Shown here piece by piece: positions 1,331 through 63,812 of a stretch of DNA of 64,000 bases. Source of the stretch: Squalus acanthias (lineage: Eukaryota); the NCBI GenBank assembly GCA_030390025.1, contig CM059432.1, forward strand, positions 88,352,001-88,416,000. The letters are read 5' to 3'. Below the pieces are notes generated by a model, which worked only from the letters and a program-made list of their open reading frames with translations, made no database searches and was not told where the DNA came from. The translations under genes were made by a program, and so were the position numbers. Every line of letters begins with the position of its first letter. The stretch's first letter is position 1.

Positions 1331-3723
1331 ATTATTTCTGCATCTTTGTAGCGTTTGGGAGTTTGAGAAAGTGATGGGGGAGGAGCTTTTTAAAAAGATT
1401 TTTTTAAATTCTTTCCTTTACATGTCCACGTCACTCCTTGGTAACCTGTTGATAATTTTTTTGAAGAATCATTTTCAGCTAGCTATGTGTATGGGGAGTT
1501 TTATTTGTGAGCGAGGTGCTGGTGGAGCCCATCGTGTTGGTCGAACGGACTAGATTCATTGCACGGGTTGTGAGCAAACATGACCCGAGGCTGTCAGTTG
1601 AAATGAAATGCCATTAATACCAGGCAGGGAGCTGTAATTTCGTTACTAGGGTACAGTCATTTGTGTTTTGACTTCAGAATGTATTTAAGAATTATTTTGC
1701 GTATTGTTTTTTTTTTAATTAGGCGTTTTTCAGATTTAATGTAACTTTGTAAAAATCAAACTGTTCTCAGCCTTATTTATCCCTGGTTAAAAATGCGATA
1801 TGGTTTCTTAAAAATTAAATTGAATCTATATACACTGTAGGTAATACAGAAACAAGTTTTAAGAAGAAACTGAGTATCGTGCAGTCATTTATAGCGGGGC
1901 AAACCCATATTTACTCGCCGAGTTCAAACATTTATGTAAATAATAGAGCCAAATTTCCGTTGTCTCAGTTTCTGGCTGTTAACAGTTGTATGTGCCAGGA
2001 GACCTCGGTCATTGACTCCCACCTGGCTCTGAAGTAACCGAAAGCATATATTTACTCAATGTGGTGTCAAGATTTTAATTCTGATGAACTACTACAACCA
2101 TTTAAGACGCAGAATGCCTTATGTTAGTTGAACGCAAAGGTGATTTAATTTAAACTAGGGTTCTGAAATACATGACGATATAAAAGGAAAGTTTAATTGC
2201 GGGTATGTTCAAATGGAATATGTTAGACCAGATGAAAACGAGTAACTGAAAGAGGACTTTTGCACTTTCAGCTATATACCTTTTTACTACTTGCTTTATT
2301 ATTCAGAACTGGACTGTGTGCAGTTACATGGTGAACAGCATAGCAGATGAAACATAGTAGAAGTTACGATTCATCTGAATGTATTTGTAAACACATCGCA
2401 CGTACTGTAGTATTGATTTTTTCGGTAAATGCGGAAGATCTATTCAGTATATATGTTGCAGATTTATTGTGCTTATGCAAACGAAGATTTCAAAATATGT
2501 ACCAAATTTTAAACAATGGCTGAGATAAAACTAATAACTGGCTGCTGGGTTATTGCAAAGGTTTTATAGATGTGTTCTTCAAGTACTTGCTGTAGATTAT
2601 GTCAAATCATTGGTGATTGTTATTTGCTATTATATAACCTTTCTAGAAATTATTTTTATTTGAGAAACAAAATTCTGGTGAATGTTAAATAATAAAAAGT
2701 TCTGGTCAAATTAGCACACTCTTCATTCCATATTTTTCACACTCTATAGGAATAAAGAGTAGTTTGGTAGGTTCTGGAAATGCACACGGCAATATAGATG
2801 CTGTCATGACGTTACAGGCAGGTGCTTTCACACATGGCCCCCTACCCTTGCTTTGTATAAAGCTCCAGGATCTATGCCAGTGTCCAAGTTCATTTCCCCC
2901 CAGCTAAATGTTTATGCTTCTTGTATTAGTCCTCGCATAGCCAAATGTTTGGATGATGTCCGCAGCCTTTCAGTGGGAGTAAGTTAGATTAGTCAGACAT
3001 GTGGAATATTCTGTCATTGGCCCACCCAGGATTTTGTGTTTCTACAGATTTCCTAGGAGACTGTGTTAGCACCGGATGATGAAGCTCTGGAAAATATTCT
3101 AATCTGTCTTTTTCAAGACAATCATACAATGGCTGTACTTTGTATGGTAACATGAGTGACCATATGCTCCCTAGACAGCCAAATAGAAATCACATAAAGC
3201 AGGCAAAAACAAAGAAGACCATTAGCATAGACTGGATTAAGGCACAAATTTTGGATTTTACACTCAGCAGAAACAGTGTGACTGTGCTTATATTGGTACA
3301 ACTTTTGGCACTGACTCAGCAATATATCACCTATATCAAAAAGAAACTAAACATTTCCATTTTTGGGTCACATGTTAGCACCAACATCAGTCAAAGAGCG
3401 AAAATTTCGACTGCCCCCGAAAATGGGCGCGGGATCGCGATGCGCGATTAACCCACACCCATTCAAAGTAATGCAGGCAGCAAACAAACTTCGTGCTGCC
3501 TGCTAATTATAATGATTGTGGCATGCAGCCCAGCACTGAATGCACTGCTGAGTGGCTGCATGCCTCACCAGCGGGCCCAAGTTCATGTGACACTAGCCCC
3601 ACTTAAAGCTAACCTGCACTACTTAAAGGTAGCCTGCACCTCTTAAAGGGGAGATGCATCCTGGCTGCAGCAGGTGATTCAACTGGCTGGGGAACAGAGT
3701 GTAAGCAGGAACAACACAGAGTA

Positions 3724-5600
3724 ATGGCGCAATAGGGCAGAAAGCGGGCTCCAAGATTCTCTGATGCAGCACTGGTGGCCTTGGTGTAGGAGGTGGACAG
3801 GAAGAGAGAGGTCCTCTATCCACAGGGGGCCAGGAGGCCCTCCAGACAAACTCTGAAAAGGCAATGGGAGCAGATAGCCATCGCGGTAAATGCCAGCAGT
3901 GTAGCCCCGAGGACCTGGATGCAGTGCCGCAAGAAGTTTAATGACCTCACACGAGTGGTCAAGGTCAGTGAATTCATCCTCAACTGCCATATTGTTACAA
4001 CTGCACCACGAGGCTCAGACACTGCTCAATTCACTCCCCTACCAACAATCATTGTCAATCACGACTCATACCTCACATTCATTGCTTCACCTCACCCTCA
4101 CACACTTACCACTGCTGCAAGCCTCACATCCACATCTCACAGCTCGCACACACTCCCAGCTATTCAATCATGACAGGCACATGACCCAAACACATTGCAC
4201 CACACTCACTGACACACTTCACTCTCTCTTGCAGGATAATAAGGTGGCTCATAACCGGAGGCAACAGGACACTAACCGCAGTGAGACAGGTGCGCCTGCA
4301 TGATCTAACCCCTGTGGAGGAGACGGTGTTAGAAATAATTGGAGCAGCCATTGCTGAGCCCGTGGCCAGCGGCGGTACTGAAACAATCAGTATCCTCATA
4401 CCTAATCCTCCTTCTCACATCCTACTTCCCCCTCATTCCGCAATCTCTTCTGATTTACAAGCTGCAGATGGTGTAAGCGTGCACCTCTTGCTTTCCCCCC
4501 TCCCCTCACTGCAACACCACCCTTGTGCCTTTCTCCTTTCAGATAGCCAAGAACTGCAACCTGGCTGGGCAGTGGTGGAGGAGCAGAAAGTGCAAGAGGA
4601 AGAAGGAAGTGATGCTGAAGACGCATTGTCACTCGGTTTCGCACTCGCAGTCACCAGCTCAGATACTGACACTCCGAGTACTTTAGAGGATAGGTTAGAC
4701 ACGGGATCTCCACGCGGTGAGTTACTGGGCACGAGTGGCCTGCAGCCAGGGCAGGAAGAAAGGGTAGTGCAGGTACGAGCTCCCCGGAGGGCGAGGTCGC
4801 ACATGAGATCTGCTGCACTGGACTCAGATGAGGATTTTGATGGGGCAGCCTACAAAAGAAGGCTGATGGGTATGCGCAATGAAATGCTTGGTACTTTGGC
4901 AGGCCGGCCAGAAAGACTGAATGCAAGGTCAAGGAACATGGAGGGGTCTGGCACCAATCTTGCACAGGGTCTTGCGCAGAGCTTGGAGCCCATCCTGTCC
5001 AGCATGGAAGTGATGGGCAATTCCATTAGCGCACTTGCGGCCACAACCATGATGCAGCATCTGATGGCCGATGTCTCAGCTTCCAGTGCAGCACAAGCAG
5101 AAGGCACCCAATGTCTGGGTGCTGCAGTGGAAGCTCAGACTTCTGTCATGCAAGCTCAGACTGCATCCTCGCAAGCTCAGACTGCTGCCATCATGGCTGC
5201 GGTTACCAGTGTTGAAAGGGTGTCATAGCAATGGATTACTAGGATTGCTAAGGTGCTACCCTGTGGTATTGGCTGTGGCACCATGGAGCATAAGCCTACT
5301 GTTCTCTCTCAGGATGACAGTATTCGTGCTTTCACCACTGCCAATCTGCCAGTGCCCTTGCTTTTGCCTGTTAGCCAGCCAGCCCGGACTACTGCCACCC
5401 ATGCCGAGGTGGTACAGTCTGAAGCTGGGCCTTCTAGGCCCAGAGCTACTCGAGGTCGTCCTCCGAGGCCATCTGCAGTCTCCCCCACTGAAAGTCAGCA
5501 GGCTTCCACCAGCCATGCTACAGCCACTAGGGTAGCACTGCGTAGGGGCACTAGGACAGGTAAAGCCACAGGCACAAAGGAAATGTATGAGGGTGATTAG
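3724..5600 (+). pseudogene. Harbinger Myb/SANT-like DNA-binding gene, 3 exons, disrupted
   Basis: Exon 1 3724-3963 reads MAQ*GRKRAPRFSDAALVALV*EVDRKREVLYP...WEQIA...RTWMQCRKKFNDLTRVVK with two TAG stops. Donor GTCAGT at 3964, acceptor TTGCAG ending 4234, second acceptor TTTCAG ending 4542. Frameshifts downstream. Confidence 0.85.
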
Positions 5601-5768
5601 TTGACTTTGGTATGTAATATTGGATTGATTGATTTATAAAGTTGGTTTGGAATGTTTGTTTTGTGATGGCTTTTATTTCAGCATTGTGGCCAAGATAACG
5701 TTGTGATGGCCAGTAACAGAGGGAAGGTAAGGTGTGGAACTGTTGGTGAATGGAGAATTGGGTTGTCT

Positions 5769-6879
5769 TCACTGGTACCGCAGTTGGATCAGTTGATCAT
5801 GGACAGCCCAGTCAGGAAGGAGCTGTGTTGGTTGCCTCCTCCCTTCCTCTTCCTCTTCCTCCTTCTCAGCTCTTTGCCGTATACCTGGTGGCAAGGACTG
5901 TGCCCTCATGATGGCGAGGTTGTGCAGCATTCAGCAGACCACAGTGAATCTTGAGACGTGCTCAGGTGAGTACTGCAGGGCTCCTCCACAGCGGTCCAGG
6001 CAGTGGAAGCATTGTCTAAGCACCCCAAAGGTCTGCTCAATCACATTCTGGGTGGCAGCATGATGCCTACGGGTGCTTGGTTTGTGCACTGTCATGAGCC
6101 AGGTGGTTAGTGGATAGCCCTTGTCACGCAGTAGCCACCCTCTGGTTAGGTGTGGGGGCTCAAATGCGGATGGTGCAAGTGGATTGCCGCAGAATGAAGG
6201 CATCATGATTGCTGTCAGGATACCGAGCGTTGACTTGTATGATGCGCTGAGTATGGTCACATACCAGCTGACATTGAGGGAGTGGAATTCCTTCCGGTTG
6301 GGGTACATCTCCGAATTGAGATGCGGCGCCTGCAAAGCAACATGTGTGCAGTCAATAGCACCCTGCTCCATGGGGAAGCCTGTTTTCTTGGCAAAGCCAT
6401 GTGCTCACTCCGCCTGCTTCTCTCTGGCAAGAGAGAATGAAATGTACTCACCTCTCTTTGCATACAGAGCCTCAGTGATCTTCCTTATGCAACAGTGCAT
6501 GGCAAACTGGGAGATGGTGGAAATATCGCCTGCTCCAGCCTGGAAGGAGCCCGACGCATAAAAATTCATGGTCACGCTCACTTTCACAGCCACTGGCAAT
6601 GCCATCCTTGCCTTGCTCTGAGGATACAGGTCTGCAACAGTCGGCAGATTTCAGTGAGCACCTCCTTCGTGAAGCGGAGACATTGCATACACTGTTCCTC
6701 ACTGAGGTTGAGGTAGAAGAATTGCTCCTTGAAGACCCTGGGTGGATATGGCCTTCTGCTGAGAGCCCTTCTCCCCCTCCTCCTCCTCCCTCTTCAAGCA
6801 GTTTGTCCTGCTCTGTATCACCTCTGCTCATTTTCCTGTTAAGCTGCAGGCCAATGGGGATACAAACTACTGCACCCAT
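5769..6879 (-). pseudogene. Harbinger DDE transposase (HARBI1-family nuclease), frameshifted
   Basis: Motifs ALPVAVKV..NFYASGSFQ, GAIDCTHVAL, NRKEFHSLNV, LLRDKGYP and VIEQTFGVL are spread over several frames. Starts MGAVV at 6879 and ends DQLIQLRYQ*. Confidence 0.9.
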
Positions 6880-7059
6880 GTCTGGGAGCATCTGGTCTGA
6901 GCAGAAGCCTTGAAGTAACCTGCCACACCACTCCCTGGATATGTAAGCAACTTCAATCAGATAACAAACCACCAAACGCTTCTACAAATGGTCCAGGCAG
7001 CGGAAGTATTGTCTAAGCACCCCAGTTGTCTGCTTGATCACATTGTGGGGTATGGTAGC

Positions 7060-7487
7060 TTACGTTACTGGACTAGTAATCAACAGGCCTGCATCAGGAG
7101 TGTGCGCACGCCTCGGACACCATTTTGGACCCGAATCCACACACGTAGTGCCTAAAAACTGGGCACTACTGAGCCGATTGCGAGAAATAGAGACGTCCAA
7201 TGATGCTTGCTAACACTAACAGTCATTTCTCTTGCGTGAATGTGACACTGCAACTTGCCAAAGGAATAAAAACCCATCTGGTTCACTAATGCCATTTATG
7301 GAAGGAAATCTGCCATCTTTACCCGGTCTGGCCTATATGTGACTCCAGATCCACAGCAATGTGGTTGACTCTTAACTGCCCTCTGAATTGGTAGCTCACC
7401 ACCACCTTCTCAAGGGCAATTAGGGATGGGCAATAGATGCTGGCCTTGCCAGCGATGCCCACGTCCCATGAATAAATTAAAAAAAAA
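7060..7487 (+). mobile_element. tRNA-derived SINE (family B), interrupted by a 177-bp local duplication, inserted in the Harbinger
   Basis: Head GTTACTGGACTAGTAATC, body AAAAACCCATCTGGTTCACTAATG, tail GGGATGGGCAATAGATGCTGGCCTTGCCAGCG plus poly-A. Matches the copy at 29504-29955. Confidence 0.8.
7086..7262 (+). repeat. Direct duplicate of 7760-7936
   Basis: GGCCTGC.TCAGGAGTGTGCGCACGCCTCGGACACC...ACTGCAACTTGCCAAA is present at both sites with few mismatches. Confidence 0.92.
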
Positions 7488-9119
7488 CTCACCAGTAGAA
7501 ATCAATCAGTAACTAACCTGAAAGCAGTTGATGCTCCGTTTAAATAGCACTGATTGTGGGGTCACTCCTGCTGCAGAACACATGTTCAGCTGTGCGTGTT
7601 TAAGAGTGCTCAATTCTGGAGCATTGAGGCCAAAAATGGCTGTGCTGGCATCAAATCAGTGTTGCACGCTGATTGATGTCATGATGTGCGTACTCTGCAT
7701 ACTTCCGGCACACGCTCCCAGTGCCCCGCTAATGTCCTCCCCAAAATGACATCCGGTGTGGCCTGCGTCAGGAGTGTGCGCACGCCTCGGACACCATTTT
7801 GGACCCGAATCTGCACACGTAGTGCCAAAAAACTGGGCACTACGGAGCCGATTGCCAGAAATAGAGAAGTCCAATCATGCTTGCTGACACTAACAGTCAT
7901 TTCTCTTGCGTGAATGTGAAACTGCAACTTGCCAAATTTGCTTCGGATTAACAGAATTAAGGAATGACTGTGCCATGATTGCCACATTATTCACAACAGG
8001 GTAGATAAGCACAGTAAGTCTGGGAAATCTAGGTATGAACATAATGGTGCCAATGAAACACCAACATCACATGGTGCAAAAGACTTGAGTCATCAGTGGG
8101 GATTCACCAGTGTTGGATGAAGCTGAAAGTCCTTTTACACCCCTTACAGGAATTCATTGATGAATATTGAAAGAATTTTGGTACTGATTTGCACTGATAT
8201 ATTGTCAGCGATGACTACTAAATACAATGTAAATCAATGACAGATTACACTTGTTCCTTCCATGGTGGCAACTATCAGTCTAGTAATATGGGACTCCTGT
8301 CAAACAGGAACCCTTAACTTAGAAGTCCTGGTTCAAATGTAGCTAAAGCAACACTAGTGCTGGTGTACAGTACCTTTCAGACTGTTCTTCCTCTGGGATA
8401 GTGCCCTTTTTAAGGGCTCTCAAATCATAATCAAAGGACAGTATTTCCAAAGGAGCCTTGCTTTGTTTTCCTAGACCTGCTCTATGGGATTGATAACAAT
8501 TGGCTACTTTTACGGGTATGCTACCCAGCTGCAATATTTTCTTTGGGCGCCAATCCCTTCAAGATATCCACAGACTGCAGGAGAGGTAACCCAAACCTAC
8601 CAAATGAATGCTCGGCCCATGAATTTAAAAAAAAGATCTAATCAGGATTTGCTTACCTAAGGGCTGCACTGCTCCAAGCAGTTGCTAAAACAGATCTGTT
8701 TTCTTCTGAAAACCATTGCTTACCTTGATTGAAGACCAAATGTAGGCAGCCATTCTGCCACAGGAAACAGTAGCCCATGTCTTACAAACAGCAGTGAGAT
8801 GCATGGATTTCAGTGTTGCTCTGAAGACTGGCATAGCTGCATTTAATGGTTCTACCAAATGAGCTGTAGCCAGAATGATTATAAATACTCCTGAATGAGA
8901 AAAGTGTTTTTGGAGGAGAGGTAGACTGAAATGAGCTATAAATGCTATTATAGGGATGACTATGAAAAGCAGAATCACTTTTAAGACCCCTCCCTCACTC
9001 CGCTGACAGGCTACACTAAAGCCCTAGCTCAGCTGTAAATTTTTCATAGCAATGCCTGGAGTTCTTGGGTATCATACCCTAGTATGTCTCCTTGGCATAG
9101 AATCATCCAATATTATATT

Positions 9120-9864
9120 GGCCCAGAAATTCATCTCGCTCTGTTCCCGCGGGGGTAAGGCTTCCCCGCGATCTCTCACCTCGCTTGTGCTTTTTCAGAT
9201 CCAGCTCGCACGAACTTGATGTTCCAGACATCAGCTGGACAGTGCTTGCGTATCCCAGCGGCGTAGTGAATTCGTGCGAGCTGTGGGATCACATGACTCA
9301 GTTAGAGCCAATGGCAGCACACCATCTTCCATTCATAAGTTTCACATACGTGCTGTGAAATCTATGAATCTTACACCCCCCCCAAAATAACAGCTAAACC
9401 TCAATTAATTTTTTTTAAAAAACCATCACATTAATAAAATAAGTATAGTTAAATAAATTAACCATTTTAAATAAAAAATTAAATTTTTGAAAAAATTTAA
9501 AATCTTTTAAAAAGTTATAAAAATAAACTTACCTGTCTTTAAAGTCTCTAAAAAAGATATACCTGTTAAAAAAAATTCAAAAAAATACTTAATTCACTAC
9601 TTACCTTGTTAAAAGTGGGTCTTACTCCTCCTTTTTCCATTTCCAAAATCTTCCGTACTTACCTGCGCGTCCAAAGCATGAAGTGCACAGCGTGCGCGCA
9701 GCCTGTAGCGCGCACGCGATGCACTGAGGAACCGCCCCCTTTTCAAAAGAGCAATTGCCGGTTTTCAGCGCATGCGCAGTGCATGCAGAAAACCGGCAAT
9801 TGGAGAGAGAATACGCGAGAGTACGCAGTGCGTACTCTCGCGCACCGGGATGAACTTTCGGCCC
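9120..9864. mobile_element. Non-autonomous TIR element (MITE family B, probably Harbinger)
   Basis: Ends GGCCCAGAAATTCATC / GATGAACTTTCGGCCC, flanked by ATT...ATT (3-bp TSD). AT-rich core and internal palindromes. Homologous to 24775-25539. Confidence 0.8.
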
Positions 9865-20479: not shown

Positions 20480-21815
20480 CTTTCTCCAGTTTTCCTTCAG
20501 ATTTTCTCCCTTTTCTTGCTGTTCTGAAAGCTGCACTTATACGGGAATATGGTCCCATGACTAGTGGCAACCATTTGATATCTCATTCTTCATGTGTAAG
20601 TCCTGGGAGTGAATATTGGTGGACTGCTTGTTTGTAGGCGGGACACCATAGGGAAACCAATCTTTTCCTTACTCTGGGCTGAATTTTAATGGGGAAGGCG
20701 GATTGGGGGCAGGGGGTGTTGGGGGGCTCTGAGGCGGTAGGGAAACCCGGGAGAATGTGTTTCCCATAGGCCCTACCGAATTTAACGGCAGGGCCTGATT
20801 TGAATGGGAAGCCTCTGTTTCCCACCCGCAGCCAGCCAGATTGGGAGGATGGCTGGCACTCGGTGGGTAGGCCTGCGGCACTAGGCCGCACAGAGGAGGG
20901 AGGGAGGGATCACAGGGAGAGAGGGAGCCGGGGTCGGCCGGAGGAACGGGGGTGGGGGGAGGTTGGGGTGGGGGTCCGATAAAAGATCGTGGGCTGGGAG
21001 GAGCAGGGGAGGGTGGTCAATGAAATATCGCAGGCCAGAGGAGCACGGGGCGGGGGCCAACAAGATCGTGATCACGGGCCGGCCGGAGGAGCGGGGTGTT
21101 GGGGGTGTCTGAAGGGATTGGGGGCTGGGAGCAGCGCGAGGGGGAGGCCTTGTGGGGGGGATGCCACATGGGGGGAATTAGAGGCCTGGGGGGGAAATTG
21201 GATGCCTGCGGGGGGGTGATCGGAGGCCTCGTGGATCGCGAAGGGTTGGGTTAAGCAGGGATCCTTGATTCAGGAGGTAAGTGTAAAGGCACTTACCTCC
21301 TGGATCCAGCAGTCCTCACCTTGCTTTAGCTGGCCGGTTTCACGAGGCATGCAAAACCCGACCAGCTAAAGTTAAATAAGAAATGCAAGTTAAAGCAGAG
21401 GCTTCCAGCCTCATTATAATATTTAAATAGACAGCCCGCCTCCTGGCAAGCGGATTGGCTGCCCGCCCCACGTCCCACCTCCATTAAAACCAGAAGTGGG
21501 TGAGTTGGAGGCGGCTTCAGGTTGGGATTCAGATTTTTAACACTTTAACTACCCTCTCGCCCCCAACCCACCCATTTTTTTAGGTTAATATTTTCCCCTC
21601 TGTGTCTATACACATGCATTTCCAATCATTGGATTGCAGGTAGTAGCAGGAATGCTGGATATTTTATTTCTTCCCCTTTTATTAGCACAGGGAAATTCAG
21701 GCCAGTTGTAACACCTATTCTACCCATAGAAATCAGCTAACACCACACAGAGCAAAGGTCACACTGATCTGCATGGATAAGTGTCTTGTCATGTGGTACA
21801 TTTACCCAGAGCAGT
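20480..21815 (-). mobile_element. Old SINE-like repeat (family C), split by the MITE at 20676-21598
   Basis: Flanks on both sides of the MITE resemble the reverse complement of 47645-48065 and 52975-53325. Confidence 0.5.
20676..21598. mobile_element. Non-autonomous TIR element (MITE family C, probably Harbinger)
   Basis: Ends GGGCTGAATTTTAA / TTAATATTTTCCCC, TSD TCT, G-rich core. Related to 24267-24748, 40338-40985 and 59338-59790. Confidence 0.8.
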
Positions 21816-23414: not shown

Positions 23415-24266
23415 GGAGGAGAAATTCGGTAGTGCCCCGTTTGGGGCGCAATTATTGGCCGGGCGCAGAGTTTAGTGCCTGGTGCTAATTATCGCCTCCG
23501 ACTGCAAACTTGGCTTCTATCGCCCCTGGAGGTGATTGGAGTGCTAAATCAGGCGCTACACACCTCTCTTAAGGCGCTAACGCCGAGGATCGAGGTGCTA
23601 CCTCAGAGCGCTGGCGAAGCTCATGTGATGTCAGTCAGCAATCGAACACAGACACACTGGCGCCGGCCAGTTCTTAAAGGGGAGGGTCGATCTTGCTCTC
23701 CATCCACAGCCTGCTCATTGCAGCCTTGAATCTCGGCCTGGAGAGACCTGTACATCAATTCTGCTGGAAAGAACAATGGAGAGGCCCAGGGAAAGAGCTC
23801 AGAGTGCAGCCCACATAGTCTCTTCTAAATCGATGCAAGGAAGATCAAATCAAAATGAACCTGCAAAGTGCTGCCCAGTACCCAAACTCCTTCACACAGC
23901 ATTGAATCTCTCCAGAAGTCTCTCTCTCTCTCTCTCAGAATGCGTGGTGCAAAAATGTCGGCGACAAAAAAAGGCAGGAAGTGGCCGCCTTTAAATAGCC
24001 CTCCCCCAGTCCCTTCCCGACTGCAAAACGTTCCCCTCAACCTGTCGTTGCAAGCGGCAGGCGGAAAGGCATGGGGTGCCACTCAATATCCGATTCGAGG
24101 CGCTACTGGGGCGTTGCATGCTCGACTGACGTCATGATCTGCGGGTGCAGGAGATTGTGGTGGTAGTGTTTAGCGCCGCCGCAAAATGTCTGGTCAATTT
24201 TGCGAGCGGCGCAAACATCGCCGCGCCCGGGCGCTAGTTGCTTTGTGCCCCATTAGTGCCCTCTTA
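23415..24266 (+). mobile_element. Harbinger MITE family A, right end lost
   Basis: Colinear with 34297-35183 and 44884-45772. Left end GGAGGAGAAATTCGGT. Confidence 0.9.
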
Positions 24267-24774: not shown

Positions 24775-25539
24775 GGGCCAGAAATTCAGCTTTCCGGCTT
24801 CCTGCGGGTGCAAGCATCGTGCGCGTACTTGCCTACCGTGCCTGCCGTTGTGCTTTGGGCCCACGAGGACTTCGGGTCCTGGGCCTCCTGCAGCTGCTGG
24901 CGTGCAGTGCTTGTGTATCCCAGGGGCGCAGTTAGTTCGAAGCGTCCCCTGGGATCACGTGGGCCATGGAGAGCCAATCCTAGCAGGGCATTTTCATTCA
25001 TAGATTTGACAGGAAGACCTGTCAAATCTATGAATAGAGATCGGCCCCAAAACTACACTTAAACTTCAAATACATTTTTTTAAAAAACATCACATTTTTA
25101 AAATAACTATAAGTTAAATAAATTAACTACTTTAAACAAAAATTTAATTTTTTGAAAAAGTTAATTATACTTTGTAACGGTGCTAAAAATAAACTTACCT
25201 TTCTTTAAAGTATCTAAAAAAGATAAAACTGTTGAAAATTTTTTAAAATTGTAATTAATCAACCACTTACCTTGTTAAAAACAGGCCTTGCGCCTCCTTT
25301 TTAAATGTGCAGCTTCTCATACTTACCTTCCCGGAGAAACCTGAAAAAAAAATCGAAGTTCGCTGCGTGTGCGCAGCCTCTCCCACGCACGTGTTCGACT
25401 TCTGAACCCCTCCCTTCAGGGGAACAGAAGTTCCGGTTTCCCGCGCATGCGCAGTGCATGCAGGAAACCGGCACTTCAGATGGCCTTACGGGTGAGTACA
25501 CAGCGCGTACTCACCCGACAACAGCCGAATTTCTGGCCC
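24775..25539. mobile_element. MITE family B
   Basis: Perfect 13-bp TIR GGGCCAGAAATTC, flanks AAT/ATT. Colinear with 9120-9864. Confidence 0.85.
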
Positions 25540-27897: not shown

Positions 27898-28127
27898 TAT
27901 TGTGTCCTGGCCAATATTTATCCCTCAACCAACGTGACCAAGGAAAACAGATTATCTGGTCATTTATCTATTGCTGTTTGTGAGACCTTGCTCTGAGCAA
28001 ATTGGCCGCCATGTTCCCCTACATTACAACAGCTACTATATTTCAAAAATAGTATTTCATGGGTTATAAAGTATTTTGGGGCGTCCTGGGGCCATGACAG
28101 GCGCTATATAAATGCAAGTTCTTCTTC
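27898..28127 (+). mobile_element. Deu-domain SINE, 3' half
   Basis: TGTCCTGGCCAATATTTATCCCTCAACC...GGCGCTATATAAATGCAAGT. Confidence 0.85.
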
Positions 28128-28326
28128 AAAGTTACGGTGAGATATCCCTCTGGAAATTGCCCCCACCTCCAATTATTCTGCCTGTGCATCAACATGCTGT
28201 TATATATATGGAATATTTGATTTGTTTCCCACATTATTTAAAATTTTAATATTCAATGCAGGAGTGGAAACAAAACTCAAATAAATGTAGGGAAAGTCAA
28301 TGCAAGGAAGGGCATGCAGTCACAGG

Positions 28327-28663
28327 AAGAAAGAAGGAAGAAAAAACTTGCAGTTATATAGCACCTTTCACAACCACAGGATGTCCCAAAATGTTTCACA
28401 ACCAATGAAGTACTTCTGAAGTTTAGTCACTGTTGTAATGTAGGAAACACGGCAGCCAATTTGCACACAGCAAGGTTCCACAAACAGCAATGAGATAAAT
28501 GAGAAGATAATCTGTTTTGCTTAGTGATGGTGGTTGAGGGATAAATATTGGCCAGGACTAACCAGGAAGAACTCCTACTTTTCTTTGAATAGTGCCATGG
28601 GATCTTTTACATACACCTGAGAGGGCTGACAGGGCCTCTGTTTAATGTCTCATTCGAAAGACA
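28327..28663 (-). mobile_element. Deu-domain SINE, 5'-truncated
   Basis: GGTTGAGGGATAAATATTGGCCAGGAC...GTGCCATGGGATCTTTTAC. Confidence 0.85.
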
Positions 28664-34296: not shown

Positions 34297-35183
34297 GGGG
34301 GAAAAATTCAGTCGCGCCCCATTTGGGGCGCAAATATCGTCCGCGCGCAAAAATTAGCGCCTGGCGCTAATTATCGCCACTGACTGGAAACTTCACTTTT
34401 ATCGACCCCTGAGGTGATTGGAGCGCTAAATCAGGCGCTTCACACCTGTCTTAAGGCGCAAAGGCCGAGGAGCGAGGCGCTAACTCAGAGCGCTGGCGAA
34501 GCTCATGTGATGTTAGTCAGCAATGGAACACACACTCAATGGCACCGGCCAGTTCTTAAAGGGGATGGTTGATCTTGCTTTCCATCCACATCCTGCTCAT
34601 TGCAGCCTTGAATCCCGGCCTGGAGAGACCTGCACATCAAATCTGCTGGAAAGAACAATGGAGAGTACCAGGGAAAGAGCTTAGAGTGCAGCCTCAACAG
34701 TCTCTTCTAAATCGATACAAGGAATGGCAAATCAAAATGAACCTGCAAAGTGCTGCTCAGTACCCAAAACTCCTTCACACAACGTTGAATCTCTCCAGAT
34801 GTCTCTCTCTCTCTGAATGCGTAGTTCAAAAATGGCACCAACAATAAAAGGCAGGAAGTGGTCACCTTTAAATAGCGCTCCCCCAGTCCCTTCATGACTG
34901 CAGAACGCTCCCCTCAACCTGTCGTTGCTAGCGTCAGGCGATAAGGCAGGGGGCGCCACTCAATAGCCGCTCCGGGGCGATACCGGGGCGTTGCACACTC
35001 GACTGACGTCACGATCTGCCGGCGCAGGAGATCGTGGCGGTAGTGTTTAGCGCCGCCGCAAAATGTCTAGTTAATTTCGCGAGCGGCGCAAACATCGCTG
35101 TGCCCGGGCGCTAGTTGCTTTGCGCCCCATTAGCGCCCTCTTAAGGCGCTAACGGGAGACGCAACCAACTGAATTTTTCCCCC
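34297..35183 (+). mobile_element. Harbinger MITE family A, complete
   Basis: Perfect 16-bp TIR GGGGGAAAAATTCAGT, TSD TAT. Inserted in the CR1 5' UTR. Confidence 0.95.
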
Positions 35184-36996: not shown

Positions 36997-37687
36997 GGGG
37001 TAAAAATTGGGTAGCGCCCCCTTTGGCCAATTTTAGCTAATTTTAGCGCCCCGAAAATGTTAGCGCCGCCGCGGCCGATTTTCCCAGGTAGCGCCCCGAG
37101 AGGGAGGAGGGCCGCTACTGGAAGCGCCCCGTGTCCCTCTTGGGGCGCTGCGAGGCCAATACCGTGGTGCTACGTGCCGCAGCACGGGCACATCGCGCCG
37201 CAGTACTGCAGGCCTTCCTCCCCTTATTCAAGGGGAGGGGCCTGGCTTAGTGCGTCCTGGCGCCCAGCTGGGCCACCAGGGATCGGGAGTGCTGGCAAAC
37301 GGCACTCGAGAGGAGTGCTGAGCTCATGGAGAGCAGCCGGCACCCTGCGGAGGGGCTTCATGGGGGCCGGGGACAGCAATGGGGGCAGGTGCTGGCAGGT
37401 GGCCAGCAACAAAAATGGCCGCCCGCCACCGCCCCTTTAACTAGTGCCGCCCCGGCCGCTGGTAGGCACTGTCCGGCGGTAAGTCGGGGGGTGCCACCCA
37501 ATATTACAGCTAGGGCGCGAGCGGGGTGCTGCACACGGCGATGACGTCATCGTTGGCGGCGCAGCACCGCGCGGTGCTAACGGTTAGCGCCGCCGCTAAC
37601 CTCCCACTGAATTTCGCGGGAAGCGTGCCCAGGCGCTAGTTGATTTGCGCCCCGTTAGGAGGCGCAAATCAACCGAATTTAGCCCCC
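36997..37687. mobile_element. Harbinger MITE related to family A
   Basis: Ends GGGGTAAAAATTGGGT / ACCGAATTTAGCCCCC. Many TAGCGCC/GGCGCTA motifs. Flanks TTT/TTA. Confidence 0.8.
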
Positions 37688-44883: not shown

Positions 44884-45772
44884 GGGGGAAAAATTCAGTC
44901 GCGCCCCGTTTGGGGCGCAAATATCGGCCGGGCGCAAAGATTAGCGCCTGGCGCTAATTATCGCCACCGACTGCAAACTTGACTTTTATCGCCCCTGGAG
45001 GTGATTGCAGCGCTAAATCAGGCGCTTCACACCTGTCTTAAGGCGCAAAGGCCGAGGAGCGAGGCGCTACCTCAGAGCGCTGGCGAAGCTCATGTAATGT
45101 CAGTCAGCAATGGAACACACACACAATGGCACGGGCCAGTTCTTAAAGGGGATGGTTAATCTTGCTTTCCATCCACATCCTGCTCATTGCAGCCTTGAAT
45201 CTCGGCCTGGAGAGACCTGCACATCAAATCTGCTGGAAAGAACAATGGAGAGTACCAGGCCAAGAGCTCAGAGTGCAGCCCCCACAGTCTCTGCTAAATC
45301 GATACAAGGAATGGCAAATCAAAATGAACCTGCAAAGTGCTGCTCAGTACCCAAAACTCCTTCACACAATGTTGAATCTCTCCAGAAATCTCTACCTCTC
45401 TCAGAATGCGTAGTTCAAAAATGGCACCAACAATAACAGGCAGGGAGCGGTCACCTTTAAATAGCGCTCCCCCTTTCCCTTCATGACTGCAGAACGCTCC
45501 CCTCAACCTGTCGTTGCTAGCGTCAGGCGGTAAGGCAGGGGGCGCCACTCAATATCCGCTCCGGGGCGATACCAGGGCGTTGCGCACTCGAGTGACGTCA
45601 CGATCTGCCGGCGCAGGAGATCGTGGCGGTAGTGTTTAGCGCCGCCGCAAAATGTCTAGTTAATTTCGCGAGCGGCGCAAACTTCACCGCGCCCGGGCGC
45701 TAGCTGCTTTGCGCCCCATTAGCGCCCTCTTAAGGCGCTAACGGGAGGCGCAACCAACTGAATTTTTCCCCC
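44884..45772 (+). mobile_element. Harbinger MITE family A, complete
   Basis: Perfect 16-bp TIR GGGGGAAAAATTCAGT, TSD ATA. Highly similar to 34297-35183. Confidence 0.95.
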
Positions 45773-46073: not shown

Positions 46074-46767
46074 GAGCCCGGATTTTACGGGGCCTCTGAC
46101 AGCGTACGCAGTCGTAAGTGCCCTGCAAGTTCCGGGTTTCCGCAGGCGCAAAAACCCGGAACTTGCAATCTATCAAGTTTCAGCTTGACAGGTCCTCCGC
46201 TTCCGCAGGAATGGACATTCGCTGGCGCAGAGTTGGACTATTTGCTCAACTACTGCCCAGCGAATGCCCACGAAACTCTTACGCCGCCTTTTACCAGTGT
46301 AAGGGTTTAAATAAATATTTAAATAATTTTTGTTAAATCATTTAAATATTTAAAAACCTTTAAAATTAGTTTAGGTTATTTTTGGCCCCTTTATAAAAAT
46401 GTTTAAATTTATTTTTCAAAAATTAAATTTTTGTTTTAAATGTTTAATTAAATTGTATTTTAATTAATTTTAAACATGTGGTGATTTATTTTTATTTAGG
46501 TTGTGCGAAAGTGTGTTTTTTATGTCATTTCTATTATGCTTATGGGGATTCCGTACGTAAATGGTTGGTTGGGTCGGCCCACGTGCTCCCAGGGACGCTT
46601 GCGAACCGCATGCAGCCCCTGGGATACGTGGGCCTTTACGCAGGCCTACGCCTGCAGGCCCAGGACTGCAAGAGTCCGAAGATATGGAGGCACCAGGTAG
46701 GTGCGTACTTTTCTTGCGGAACAGAGGCATTCGCCTGCGGGAAGCCTCCGACCGCAATTTCAGGTCC
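46074..46767. mobile_element. MITE related to family B, opposite orientation
   Basis: Degenerate TIRs, AT-rich core, hairpin TGCAAGTTCCGGGTTT/AAACCCGGAACTTGCA at 46124-46167. Confidence 0.7.
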
Positions 46768-49378: not shown

Positions 49379-49748
49379 GGGGGAAAAATTCGGTTGCTTT
49401 GCGTCTCCCGTTAGCGCCCTAGAGGGCGCTAACGTGGGGCGCAAAGCAACTAGCGCCTGGGCGCAGCGATGTTAGCACCGCTCGCAAAATTGACCAGACA
49501 TTTTGCGGCGGCACTAAACACTACCACCACGATCTCCTGTGCCGGCAGATCGTGACGTCAGTCGAGCGTGCAACGCCCCGGTAGCGCCCTGGACCGGATA
49601 TTGAGTGGCGCCCCCTGCCTTATTGCCTGCCGCTAGCAACGACAGGTTGAGGGGAACGTTTTGCAGTCGGGAAGGGACTGGGGGAGCGCTATTTAAAGGC
49701 GACTGCTTCCTGCCTTTTTTTGTTGCCGACATTTTTGCACGACACATT

Positions 49749-49785
<37 letters not shown>

Positions 49786-50287
49786 CTGGAGAGGTTCAAC
49801 TCTGTGTGAAGGAGTTTTGGATACTGAGCAGCACTTTGCAGGTTCATTTTGATTTGACCTTCCTTGCATCGATTTAGAAGAGACTGTGGGGGCTGCACTC
49901 TGAGCTCTTTCCCTGGGCCTCTCCATTGTTCTTTCCAGCAGAATTGATGTACAGGTCTCTCCAGGCTGAGATTCAAGGCTGCAATGAGCAGGGTGTGGAT
50001 GGAGAGCAAGATCGACCCTCCCCTTTAAGAACTGGCCGGCACCAGTGTGTCTGTGTTCCATTGCTGACTGACATCACATGAGCTTCGCCAGCGCTCTGAG
50101 GTAGCGCCTCACTCCTCGGCATTAGCGCCTTAAGAGAGGTGTGTAGCACCTGATTTAGCGCTCCAATCACCTCCAGGGGCGATAGAAGCCAAGTTTGCAG
50201 TCGGAGGCGATAATTAGCGCTAGGTGCTAAACTTTGCGCCCAGCCGATAATTGCGCCCCAAACGGGGTGATACCGAATTTCTCCCCC
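49379..50287 (-). mobile_element. Harbinger MITE family A, complete, inverted
   Basis: TIR GGGGGAAAAATTCGGT / ACCGAATTTCTCCCCC, TSD TAA, internal (GA)n expansion. Confidence 0.95.
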
Positions 50288-56805: not shown

Positions 56806-57295
56806 ACATATAAGATATAAGAAATAAGAGCAGGAGTAGGCCATTTGGCCCTTCGAGCCTACTCTGCCATTCAATAAGATCATGGCTGATCTTCCATCTC
56901 AACTCCACTTTCCCGCCCTATCCCCATATCTCTTGATTCCCTTAGTATCCAAAAATCTAGCGATCTCTGTCTTGAATGTACTCAACGACTGAGCATCCAC
57001 AGCCCTTTGGGGTAGAGAATTCCAAAGATTCACCACCCTCTGAGTGAAGAAATTCCTCTTCATCTCAGTCCTAAATGGCCATCCCCTTATTCTGAGACTG
57101 TGACTCCTAGTTCTAGACCCCCCAGCTAGGGAAAACAGCCTCTCAACATCTACCCTGTCAATCCCCTTAAGAATTTTATATGTTTCAATGAGAGCACCTC
57201 TTATTTTTCTAAACTCTAGGGAATATAGGCCTAGTCTACTCAATCTCTCCTCATAGGACAATCCCCCCATCCCAGGAATCAGTCTGGTGAACCTT
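56806..57295 (-). mobile_element. CR1 LINE 3' end
   Basis: GLSYEERLSRLGLYSLEF...RNFFTQRVVNLWNSLP, with tail. Confidence 0.93.
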
Positions 57296-57570
57296 TGGCG
57301 CTAATTTAATTCTGGAGGCGGGTCAGCTGGTTTCCGGGTTCCGCTCCCGTCCCCAGCTGCCTCCGCTCTGCAGACATGATTTTCCCTTGATTGGCTTTGT
57401 TAAGCCCGCCCTGTGGGCTTACCGGTCAATTAACAGGAAGCGGGTCTTGACAGATCGCAAGTACCGGGTTTTTGCACATGCGCAGGGCATGCAGAAACCT
57501 GGGACTTGCGGGGCCTTTTACAAGGCTTACGACAACGTACGCCGTCATTGGCCCCGCAAAGTCTGGGTCA
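57296..57570. mobile_element. Composite Harbinger-like remnant
   Basis: 57350-57450 resembles 61270-61375. 57445-57570 is the reverse complement of the 46074-46175 end. Confidence 0.65.
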
Positions 57571-59965: not shown

Positions 59966-61210
59966 TCTACAGTTTTACTTCAATGATATTGGCTCACTGT
60001 TATCCTTCCTGAAGCTACTTAGAAATAAAAATTGATGAATTAAAATAGGTCAATTAGCATCCCTTGATTCATGTAATTCTGCACCTGCCTCTGGGCTATC
60101 AAAGGGTTTGGGACAGGGACAGATGTGATTGTGAGCCAGTTTTATTTTGTGCATGAAGAATACACTGCTGCTTCAGTTTATTGTAGGTATGTAATGGCCC
60201 AGATTTTGCTGTGGCATGGCATCTAATGGCATCTACTGTTAGTTAGACTTGCCCTTCCACATTTAGGCTGCGATTTTGCTGGTGCTCAGTGGACCCGATT
60301 GGTGGCGGGTCAGCTGTGAAATTTAAAATTATTGACAGCGGGTCAGAAACCCGCTGTCAAAACGCGCACACCTACATTTCCTGATCTCGGGTCTGCCAGC
60401 GCTGAGCAGACCTGACAGGCAGCGGCAGGGGACCGAATTCAAATCATTAGTGGCTTGTTTACAGCCACTTAAGCAATGCTTTTTTCCCGGCTTTTTAACT
60501 TTCACAGGTCTCCCACCGGTTTCCTGCTGTGCCTAGACCTCGTCTGTGAAGCTGAGGCGGGAGGTCAGTGGCCATTGAATCAGCTGATGAGTTGACAGCT
60601 TCAAATGTCAACTCAAAGCTCCCAGCTGATTGAGAAATGTTCCCTTAACTACTAGCTTCTCTAAACTGCATTTTCACTACAGATTCAAGATACTGCAATT
60701 CTTTACACAAGTCTCCATCCAGTCTGACCTCATTACCTCTCTCACCATTGACAGATCGCTTCTGTCATCTCTACTTCACTTGCCATCTATTCCATAAGCA
60801 TCAGTGCACTTTATACTCTCACCTTGGTCCACAGAATCTGACAAAGATCAACCCAGCACCAGCATCACCAGGCCCAACAACCACACCTACCTTCTCCACA
60901 GTCAATTGATGCTGCACAGGACACAGGGCATCAGCACCCAACCACATTGCTGCCCAGGATGCCAGGGATGGCCTCACCATAGCCAGATTTACTTCACTTG
61001 ACATTGCACACTCTGGCTGCCACATAATGTGCCAAGTTGGCACCACCCCACACCAACAACATATAGCATCCCTATAATGTCCATGCCATTCCTTTCACAC
61101 TCATCAGCATTGCAGGCGGTACCGTTATGTCTCCCCATTCACTGCAACTCACTAAGCCACTTCCAAAGGTGCACACAAATCTGTCCAAGAACATAACATG
61201 TTAAAAATTT

Positions 61211-63812
61211 GGGTCGCAATTTCGCCAACCGAGGTGGGTCCGGGGCGGTCGGTGTCGCGGTCCCAGCCCGCTGCCTACTGCAGCTCGCACTCTCCAAGTG
61301 ATTTTACATTGATTGGGCTTGTTAAACCCGCCCTGCGAGGTTCCCGGACAATTAAAAGGAAGCGGGTTTGATGACATCATTTGATGACGCACCATTAGCT
61401 GGTTTCCTTAAAGGAGCCATGTCCAAATTGATTTTGACTTCTGTTGTCAGTGTTCTGCAGCATTGAGGTGCTGCAAACACTGACAAGCACTGCACAAAGG
61501 CTGCACCCAGGCTCTCCCATGACTCCCTCCATATGCTTATGGAGGGAGTCACAGCATGCAGGAAGTTTCCCTTCCCTTCCCATGGGCGGAAGAGACCTCC
61601 CCAGGAGATCAACACAGCCTGGTTGCCCAAGCAGGGATGTCATCAGGAGGACTAGGCTGCAGTGGTGCAAACCTTTCAATGATCCCAGTAGATCACGAAA
61701 CATTACTGCCAAGCCACACTCAACCTCATCCTGCTGTGCCACTCATCACATCCCCATCACTCTGCCTTCCCTATCCTACTCCTGCACATCCTTACTCACA
61801 CCAACGTACCTTGCACCTCCACCCATCCCTCTCTATCTACATAAGAACATAAGAAGTAGGAGCACGAATAGGCCATTTGGCCCTTCGAGCCTGCTCCGCC
61901 ATGGCTGATCTTCTACCTCATCTCCACTTTCCTGCACTATCCCCATATCCCTTGATTCCCTTAATATTCAAAAATCTATCGATCTCTGTCTTGAATATAC
62001 TTCACGACTGAGCCTCCACAGCCCTCTGGGGTAGAGAATTCCAAGGATTCACCACCCTCTGAGTGAAGAAATTTCTCCTCATCTCAGTCCTAAATGGCCG
62101 ACCCCTTATTCTGAGACTGTGACCCCTGGTTCTAGACTCCCCAGCCAGGGAAACATCCTCCCTGCATCCACCCTGTCAAGCCCTGTAAGAATTTTGTATG
62201 TTTCAATGAGATCACCTCTCATTCTTCTAAACTCTGGAGAATATAGGTCTAGTCTACTCAATCTTTCCTCATAGGATAATCCCCCCATCCCAGGAATCAG
62301 TCTGGTGAACCTTCGTTGCACTCCCTCTATGGCAAGTATATCCCTCCTTAGGTAAGGAGACGAAAACTGTACATCATTTTCCAGGTGTTGTCTCACCAGG
62401 GCCCTATATAATTGCAGTAAGACGTCTTTGCTCTTTTACTCAAATCCTCTTGTAATAAAGGCCAACATACCATTTGCTTTCCTCATTGCTTGCTGTACCT
62501 GCCTGTTAACATTCAGTGATTTGTGTACAAGGACACCCAGGTCCCTCTGAACACCAACATTTCCCAATCTCTTACCATTTAAAAAATATTCTGCTTTTCT
62601 ATTTTTCATACAAAAGTGAATAACTTCATATTTCTCCACATTATATTCCATTTGCCATGTTCTTACCCATTCACTTAGCCTGTATATATCCCTATATCCC
62701 ATGATCTACATTATCGCTTCCCCATTTCACTAGCCACCCCTCACACTCACCCTCATCCTACTGCAAGCATATCAACTAACAACACACAAGGGTAGGCACT
62801 TGGGTGGTTTAGCCAATGTGAAGTTTCTGGTAATGTGCTGTCAAACATTGAAACCTTTATTTTCAGCACTTTGCGTTCTTGGACAGATTTGTGTGCATCT
62901 TTGGAAGTGGCTTAGTGAGTTGTAGTGAATGGTGAGACATAACGTTCCCCCACGCAAGGGTGATGAGTGTGAAAGGAATGGCTTGGGCATTGTAAGAATG
63001 CTTTATGGTGTTGGTGTGGGGTGGTGCCAACCTGGCGCATCATTTGGCATCCAGGGTGTACAGTGTCAAGTGAAGTAAATGTGGCCATGGTGAGGCCATC
63101 CCTGGTGTCCCATGCAGCAATGTGGTTGGGTGCTGATGCCCTGTGTCCTGTGCAGCATCAGTCGATTGCAGAGAAGGCTGGTGTTGTTGTTGCTGCTGGT
63201 GTGCCTGGTGCTGCTGGTGTTGGGGCTGATCTTGGTGGGATTCTAATTCCAAGGTGAGATATTTTCAAGGGCAACGATGCTGATGGAATAGATGGCAGGT
63301 GAGGTTGAGATGACAGAAGCGATCTGTCAATGGTGAGAGAGGTTGTTCCAATGAGGTGGCACTGGATAGAGAGTTTGCTCCAAACACTTGCAAGCTGCAG
63401 AAAGCTCAATCTGTCTTCCAAATGTAGTAACCAACAGTTTCTGAGCTTTGAAAGTGAACAGCTGTAACATGGGATCTTTCATACAACTTTGGCAGCTGTT
63501 AGGTCATGAGATAATTCAATGCTGAACCCACTCACAACATGCTGAGCTGACGTGTAACCCGTGGGAGAGCACGTAAAATTGAAATGTAGGCTTAAAATAA
63601 CAGTTAATTGGATGTTAACAACCCATTTAATGATGTGAATTGCCTCCCCCGCCGCTTGGTGTCGGGTCTGTTCAGCGCCGACAGACCCGACACCTGGTAG
63701 ACTCGCGTGAAGGCGTGTTGACAGCGGGTTCCCTACCTGCTGTCAATCTTTGCTATTTTGACAGTGGACCCGCCTCCGAACCCGCCCTCTGAGTGCTGGC
63801 AAAATTCAGCCC
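61211..63812. mobile_element. Harbinger deletion derivative (inner copy, opposite orientation)
   Basis: Ends GGGTCGCAATTTCGCCA / TGGCAAAATTCAGCCC. Myb remnant on + at ~61490-61700 (AAPRLSHDSLHMLMEGV...RRTRLQWCKPFND). Confidence 0.82.
61843..62703 (-). mobile_element. CR1 LINE 3' fragment nested in the inner Harbinger
   Basis: WQMEYNVEKYEVIHF, VQRRFTRLIPGM. TSD ATCTACAT at 61835-61842 and 62704-62711. Confidence 0.93.

Follow-up and report, generated by a model that had tools for sequence, protein, structure and literature searches.

PIF/Harbinger transposons are defined by DDE_Tnp_4, a Myb-like gene and a 3-bp TSD (PMC13668399, PMC2836001). In zebrafish, Harbinger3_DR and Harbinger3N_DR combine short TIRs and a 3-bp TSD with Myb-like and DDE_Tnp_4 genes in the same genome (PMC9710019, PMC2836001, PMC3016246, PMC13668399), and the Myb-like protein of Harbinger3_DR is reported to recognize a 9-bp subterminal motif (PMC9710019). 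In another vertebrate, Xenopus tropicalis, the non-coding MITEs Harbinger-N12A_XT and Kolobok-N2_XT contain palindromic repeats in their interior as well as TIRs, and the available description includes no covariation or phasing analysis (PMC12676858). By that account, a vertebrate Harbinger MITE with internal palindromes has already been published. For mPing, a Tourist MITE, internal sequences beyond the TIRs tune mobility; the mPing paper contains none of the terms 'hairpin', 'palindrom' or 'secondary structure' and suggests nucleosome effects (PMC9921582). The Lemi1 proteins bind the subterminal repeats of Emigrant cooperatively (PMC1636448). Template switching is described as a source of one-step compensatory changes in RNA-gene stems without a G.U intermediate, the reported cases being rRNA and microRNA genes and not DNA-transposon ends (PMC8794818).

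The locus described here lies in a 64,000-nt stretch of Squalus acanthias DNA, referred to below as the window, in which four short elements, A to D, are non-autonomous PIF/Harbinger (Tourist-like) elements (Table 1). With Harbinger3_DR they share short TIRs, a 3-bp TSD (exact in A only), a genome that also contains Myb-like and DDE_Tnp_4 sequences, and a short repeated subterminal motif as a likely Myb-like site, which in A-D is predicted from sequence. Unlike Harbinger3_DR as far as the available text describes it, A-D appear to hold these sites in inverted arms of 15-18 bp, which show covariation from family to family and stay in helical phase with the element end. The Xenopus elements are likened to A-D by description only, and Emigrant, unlike A-D, is pogo-like. 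The preliminary description of this locus had argued that TIR-only models of MITEs are insufficient, a view that was already published for mPing (PMC9921582) and Emigrant (PMC1636448). As for cross-family covarying or helically phased MITE palindromes, no description was found among titles, in a search with poor coverage of subscription papers and Repbase Reports.

Elements A-D measure 274-765 bp, and each carries TIRs of 12 bp. The 3-bp TSD is exact in A (one of four), and B, C and D each have a single mismatch in it; of the six other window elements with the same TIR type, five have an exact 3-bp TSD. A 2-bp TSD was considered and rejected, as it suits B alone whereas 3 bp suits A and five further elements. 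Frames overlapping B and D have no Pfam match, and neither A nor C has a frame of 120 aa. The MITE-like Harbinger identity proposed earlier is supported by the TIRs, the short length, the non-coding character and the occurrence in many contigs, with the reservations that the left end of D is doubtful and that the exact TSD is confined to A. Their portrayal as four diverged copies is correct with respect to a homologous module but not with respect to a single family. A and B are 30% divergent over 740 aligned columns, with 130 transversions against 91 transitions among the background substitutions; C is farther away than this, and D has only its right-terminal ~120 bp in common. Those 120 bp are related to C, while positions 57377-57450 of D are related to an element starting at 61211. 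In composition, CpG observed/expected reaches 0.82-1.14 in A-D versus 0.43 across the window.

Two side observations concern the makeup of these elements. D resembles a mosaic, with part of its left half matching 61299-61371 in the element starting at 61211 and its right end matching C, and its first position (57296) directly follows a LINE fragment that stops at 57295. In A, B and C an AT-rich core with ~10-nt periodicity lies between two G+C-rich ends and may constitute intrinsically bent DNA; the self-similarity of the core peaks at lags of 9 and 20 (z of 3.2 and 5.3, over three related sequences).

Table 1. Features of the window discussed in the text; positions count from the first letter of the window.
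Feature	Position	Strand	Remarks
Myb/SANT-like remnant of decayed autonomous Harbinger	3790..4173	+	Myb_DNA-bind_5, PF13873, E=1.6e-08
DDE_Tnp_4 transposase remnant, same decayed element	5931..6404	-	PF13359, E=1.4e-12; convergent with Myb gene
Element A, non-autonomous Harbinger-type	9120..9864	+	745 bp; TIRs match at 8/12 bp; TSD ATT/ATT
Element B	24775..25539	+	765 bp; TIRs match at 12/12 bp; flanks AAT/ATT
Element C	46075..46767	-	693 bp; opposite orientation to A; TIRs 7/12; flanks AAG/AAT
Element D	57296..57569	+	274 bp; TIR 5/12; flanks CTT/ATT; left boundary uncertain
AT-rich core of A	9390..9600		~10-nt periodicity; common to A, B, C
AT-rich core of B	25060..25280		as in A
AT-rich core of C	46288..46490		as in A
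Focal module of A	9752..9802		perfect 15-bp arms (9752-9766, 9788-9802); 62 bp from element end
Inner part of A module	9767..9787		GCATGC hexamers 9770-9775 and 9781-9786; NRF1-like 10-mer 9768-9777; 20/21 nt same in B
Focal module of B	25427..25477		14/15 arm pairs; 62 bp from element end
Focal module of C	46124..46167		perfect 16-bp arms; inner part lacks 11 nt; ~50 bp from element end
Focal module of D	57456..57510		two uncorrected arm mismatches; ~60 bp from element end
Second right-end palindrome of A	9814..9842		GCGTAC twice, inverted; GTAC at 44 and 33 bp from end; 2 compensated pairs vs B
Third palindrome of A	9682..9725		18-bp arms; 0 compensated pairs vs B; 6 single changes
Left-internal palindrome of A	9331..9369		1 compensated pair vs B
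GTAC palindrome of B	25489..25517
Left-internal palindrome of B	24996..25035		perfect, 18 bp
GCGTACGC palindrome of C	46102..46109		GTAC 33 bp from C end

In each element the focal module sits 50-62 bp inside one element end. The four arm pairs reported earlier were all found and are homologous. The claim that the arms keep pairing is exact for A and C but not for B, which has one mismatch (T.C), or for D, already described as imperfect, which has two (A.G and G.T). As an arm-gap-arm pattern the module is matched exactly three times in the window, and 100 shuffles give no match at all; D escapes the pattern because of a CpG-type change. Across the eight combinations of strand and copy, the fold z-scores range from -3.7 to -9.5. 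The segment between the arms had been regarded as a spacer, but it is not an unpaired loop: in A, B and D the GCATGC-type hexamers, placed 11 nt apart, pair with each other and close a loop of 5 nt. Between A and B, identity is 95% in the module centre as opposed to 46% and 27% in the flanking linkers.

The covariation of the arms was approached in two ways. When the four copies are aligned, pairing holds in 92.6% of 68 cells, and six of 17 pairs are altered on both sides, a level reached in 4 of 500 shuffles (mean 2.5), with slid controls at 0-1. This test compares four related sequences against a structure derived from those same sequences, and its covariation, taken alone, is suggestive only. 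The second test called hairpins in one copy alone and then read them in the other. Among 69 Watson-Crick pairs called in A and read in B, 49 are the same, six are compensated, 13 are changed on one side and one is doubly changed without pairing, while about one compensated pair is expected if the same 27 substitutions are placed at random (P 8e-5 to 1.6e-4). In the reverse direction, six of 52 pairs called in B are compensated (P at most 3e-5). With six compensated pairs against about one by chance (P ~1e-4), the covariation is real.

Its origin is a separate matter. Five of the six A-B compensated pairs are transversions, which leaves them no path through G.U. In the preliminary description, compensatory change was taken to indicate selection on structure or symmetry; for structure this step is not supported, since one-step template switching makes the same pattern in RNA genes (PMC8794818), so that compensation by itself does not show selection on structure. 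The predominance of transversions, as in the A-B background, fits copying better than two-step compensation. Compensated pairs are also seen outside A-D and without the GCGCATGCGC core, in two further families: one has A:T versus C:G at 49397/49446, and the other a C:G versus T:A change between 60389 and 63658. More generally, the case would caution against inferring RNA structure from compensatory change in a repeat, and high-copy families with dated subfamilies could offer an unusually rich natural record of template-switch mutation.

Public sequencing runs, all 24 of them available as assembled contigs in which contig depth gives no copy number, help to place these changes in time. In run X1, 4,341 contigs align on 286 bp of A, and the module has the highest summed depth. 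Run X20 comes from another organism; at 80% likeness its contigs cover 12 of 29 bins, confined to the module (9740-9809) and 9600-9649. At the loose ends, which occur to either side of the module, several runs show arm ends resembling those of B, and X20 shows arm ends resembling those of C. The compensated arm types are therefore multi-contig states, in another organism too, and the covariation is older than individual insertions, in agreement with the earlier view. One loose end of run X10, tentatively an RNA run, reads GAAGTGCCGG where copy B has a T at its third G, so the B mismatch looks like an uncorrected private change. Arm correction after insertion was rejected as the whole explanation: given the mismatches retained by B and D and the multi-contig arm types, the symmetry would have arisen in founder lineages, and separate repair of the copies once inserted would not be its source. 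Counting against founder-lineage symmetry, 9789 A>G is present at 28-64% in four of four runs and its partner, 9765 T>C, is unlisted at the 8% threshold, an imbalance that is either a real asymmetry or an under-listing of clustered differences. Further B-type letters (9767, 9816 and 9818) are likewise unlisted though B-like loose ends occur, and for this reason the variant table cannot test symmetry.

A second regularity concerns spacing. A GTAC lies 33 bp from the element end in all four elements. Listed for A, B, C and D in turn, the right arm lies 75, 75, 64 and 75 from the end, the CCGG of the left arm 107, 107, 85 and 106, and the GCATGC-type hexamers 95/84, 95/84, 73 and 94/83. Six independent indels of at least 4 nt in the well-aligned parts measure 10 (8-10 by parameters), 11, 21-23, 11, 11 and 10 nt, and turn-sized indels such as these would keep the motifs in helical phase with the element end. 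Among 12 control alignments of LINE/SINE-like repeats, which are not independent of each other, gaps of 10-12 or 20-23 nt account for 5 of 23, or for 10 of 23 if 9-nt gaps are counted; in other Harbinger-type families, 5 of 11 gaps outside a microsatellite are turn-sized. The A-C and B-C gaps of the left and middle parts vary between 6 and 29 nt depending on parameters, and slippage between repeat units of 10-11 nt yields identical indel sizes. The most enriched 6-mer of A-D is GCGTAC, at ~50-fold; it occurs in all four elements, and in B and C it lies close to each of the two ends. Over the whole window its enrichment is marginal, with 11 matches and 5 of 100 shuffles as high. The motif of the Harbinger3_DR Myb-like protein is reportedly a GCGTAC-containing palindrome.

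Taken as sequence evidence, these observations favor an array of double-stranded protein sites in helical phase, which a Myb-like partner would probably bind and whose symmetry would stem from template-switch copying in founder lineages; the probability of this reading is put at roughly 0.55. The module would act as double-stranded DNA in the subterminal part of the element, as one unit in an array of short, inverted, helically phased candidate sites extending from the TIR to ~110 bp inward. The most likely candidate binder would be the Myb-like partner, loading the transposase on the ends. Selection for mobilization may hold the invariant letters (AA, CCGG, TT, GCATGC and GTAC) and the rotational phase to the end, whereas at positions that tolerate substitution, template switching in founder lineages could transfer a change from one arm to its partner in a single step, and the now symmetric element could then be amplified as a new subfamily. 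Gap repair after excision would supply the arm copying. Among the cruciform, RNA hairpin and dimeric protein site that had been offered as explanations, a dimeric or multimeric protein site thus appears best supported, by the turn-sized indels and phased motifs; the cruciform is less favored and the RNA hairpin unlikely. If correct, a phased array of this kind would provide a testable design rule for vertebrate Harbinger ends, in the form of symmetric modules in helical phase with the TIR, and it bears on the strong amplification of some non-autonomous elements.

The window contains a Myb gene of its own, in a decayed two-gene Harbinger whose left TIR is similar to that of A-D. No BLAST similarity was found between this element and A-D, so it serves as context and not as a direct parent, a point that counts against the proposed reading. 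The decayed element spans 3395-7940, with hairpins near its left end (3473-3503 and 3520-3564) and a single GCGTAC at 7688; a 177-bp direct duplication (7086-7262 and 7760-7936) obscures its right end.

The distribution of the compensated pairs is a further point counted against the array of protein sites, since it could mean selection on pairing. All six A-B compensations fall in three hairpins, which have three single changes besides, and none falls in the three other hairpins; three of the six are in two hairpins without the GCGCATGCGC core. Selection might then act on the pairing itself, with a cruciform, or a single-stranded DNA hairpin in excision or gap repair, aiding mobilization or copy-number gain. 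We consider this tentative and rather unlikely. Whole elements do fold with z of about -9, C retains its perfect 16-bp arms despite the loss of 11 nt between them, and the two arms show one variant only at a level of at least 8% in the run contigs. Yet pairing gives no reason for turn-sized indels, and two-step compensation should favor transitions via G.T, not the transversions found in five of six cases. In another family, moreover, two of six aligned copies share a broken outer arm with TIRs and TSDs intact, and a G+C-rich centre of 21 nt is a poor cruciform nucleator. In its strongest form, the proposal is that animal Harbinger MITEs need folded DNA in addition to binding sites. The fold, either cruciform or a hairpin of single-stranded DNA, would be kept in helical register with the TIR, with pairing selected while the letters drift across families and species; this too is rather unlikely. 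Were pairing itself necessary, a structural step would be added to a still poorly characterized transposition mechanism, and under the folded-DNA reading a cut-and-paste element would evolve like a structured nucleic acid.

Two further explanations are improbable. By the first, the palindromes are a neutral by-product, inverted duplications kept symmetric by template switching, and the sequence and symmetry of the module are dispensable. Hairpins are indeed common in many TIR elements of the window: A, B, C and D have 5, 4, 3 and 2, against shuffle means of 0.03-0.1, and 29 hairpins occur in 13,786 bp of TIR elements versus 10 in the remaining 50,214 bp. The template-switch mechanism is documented (PMC8794818), and the mosaic appearance of D would agree with such an origin. 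A dispensable module, however, would not be expected to form the most conserved internal segment, with its near-identical centre between diverged linkers, to be almost the sole part covered in another organism, or to have its position held in phase.

By the second, the module would serve a host factor. The core GCGCATGCGC corresponds to the NRF1 consensus. Binding of NRF1 there, together with ETS-type sites in B-like arms, might maintain an open or unmethylated end or drive inward transcription, in the direction of three minus-strand motifs of A and B that resemble splice donors. Exact copies of the core, a palindromic 10-mer, occur in A and B only (two of four); D has one mismatch, and C, after its 11-nt loss, is degenerate with two, so that the statement that every spacer carries the core or a variant fits A, B and D better than C. 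The exact or one-mismatch core in three elements, the raised CpG observed/expected and the three ACTTAC motifs inward of the module in A and B are compatible with a host factor; C, on the other hand, has no donor trio, and the arms of A have no ETS-like match. Covarying hairpins elsewhere lack the core altogether, and this, with the degenerate core of C, reduces the NRF1 role advanced in the preliminary description to a resemblance. A host factor also leaves the arm covariation and the phasing unexplained, which makes the idea doubtful at best. The one NRF1 mention found in PMC12676858 is a title in its reference list. The motif ACTTAC(C), as a minus-strand splice-donor consensus, is found at 9527, 9599 and 9657 in A and at 25193, 25265 and 25321 in B, the first two being 72 nt apart in each.

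An RNA hairpin under selection, as a small-RNA precursor or structured transcript, is very improbable: although the stems are stable (at least 20 bp, with a 4-5-nt loop) and C and D gain G.U pairs in the orientation of A, compensation runs by transversion (5/6), the unpaired cells among 171 stem pairs (4 G.T, 2 A.C and 3 other, which are small numbers) have no clear strand bias, the whole window has neither an Rfam match at gathering score nor an ARAGORN/tRNA match, and cut-and-paste elements have no RNA intermediate.

Searches beyond the window for the hairpin gave no matches in a scan of viral contigs; 56 metagenome loci were set aside as chance matches, with no matching right arm in their flanks and no BLAST similarity to the window at E 1e-5. 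Within the window, several other repeats contain inverted structures. A second TIR family of ~900 bp is found at 23415-24266, 34297-35183, 44884-45772, 49379-50287 and 36997-37687, with four copies 87-94% identical; it has a terminal hairpin of its own that is compensated in the relative at 37 kb and broken in the copies at 35 and 45 kb. The TIR element at 20676-21598 (TSD TCT) has two adjacent hairpins at 21267-21371, one with a splice-donor-like motif in its arm and the other loosely like the focal module. Inverted copies of a ~950-bp TIR element (60266-61208 and 62859-63812) flank a LINE fragment and a partial element, and a SINE-like repeat forms a large fold-back at 27904-28558. Finally, the window has 13 G+C-rich runs of alternating purine and pyrimidine, at least 10 nt long, which are candidates for Z-DNA; seven of them are located in A and B (9690-9778, 24818-24828 and 25364-25453), and two further runs lie in the decayed autonomous Harbinger.
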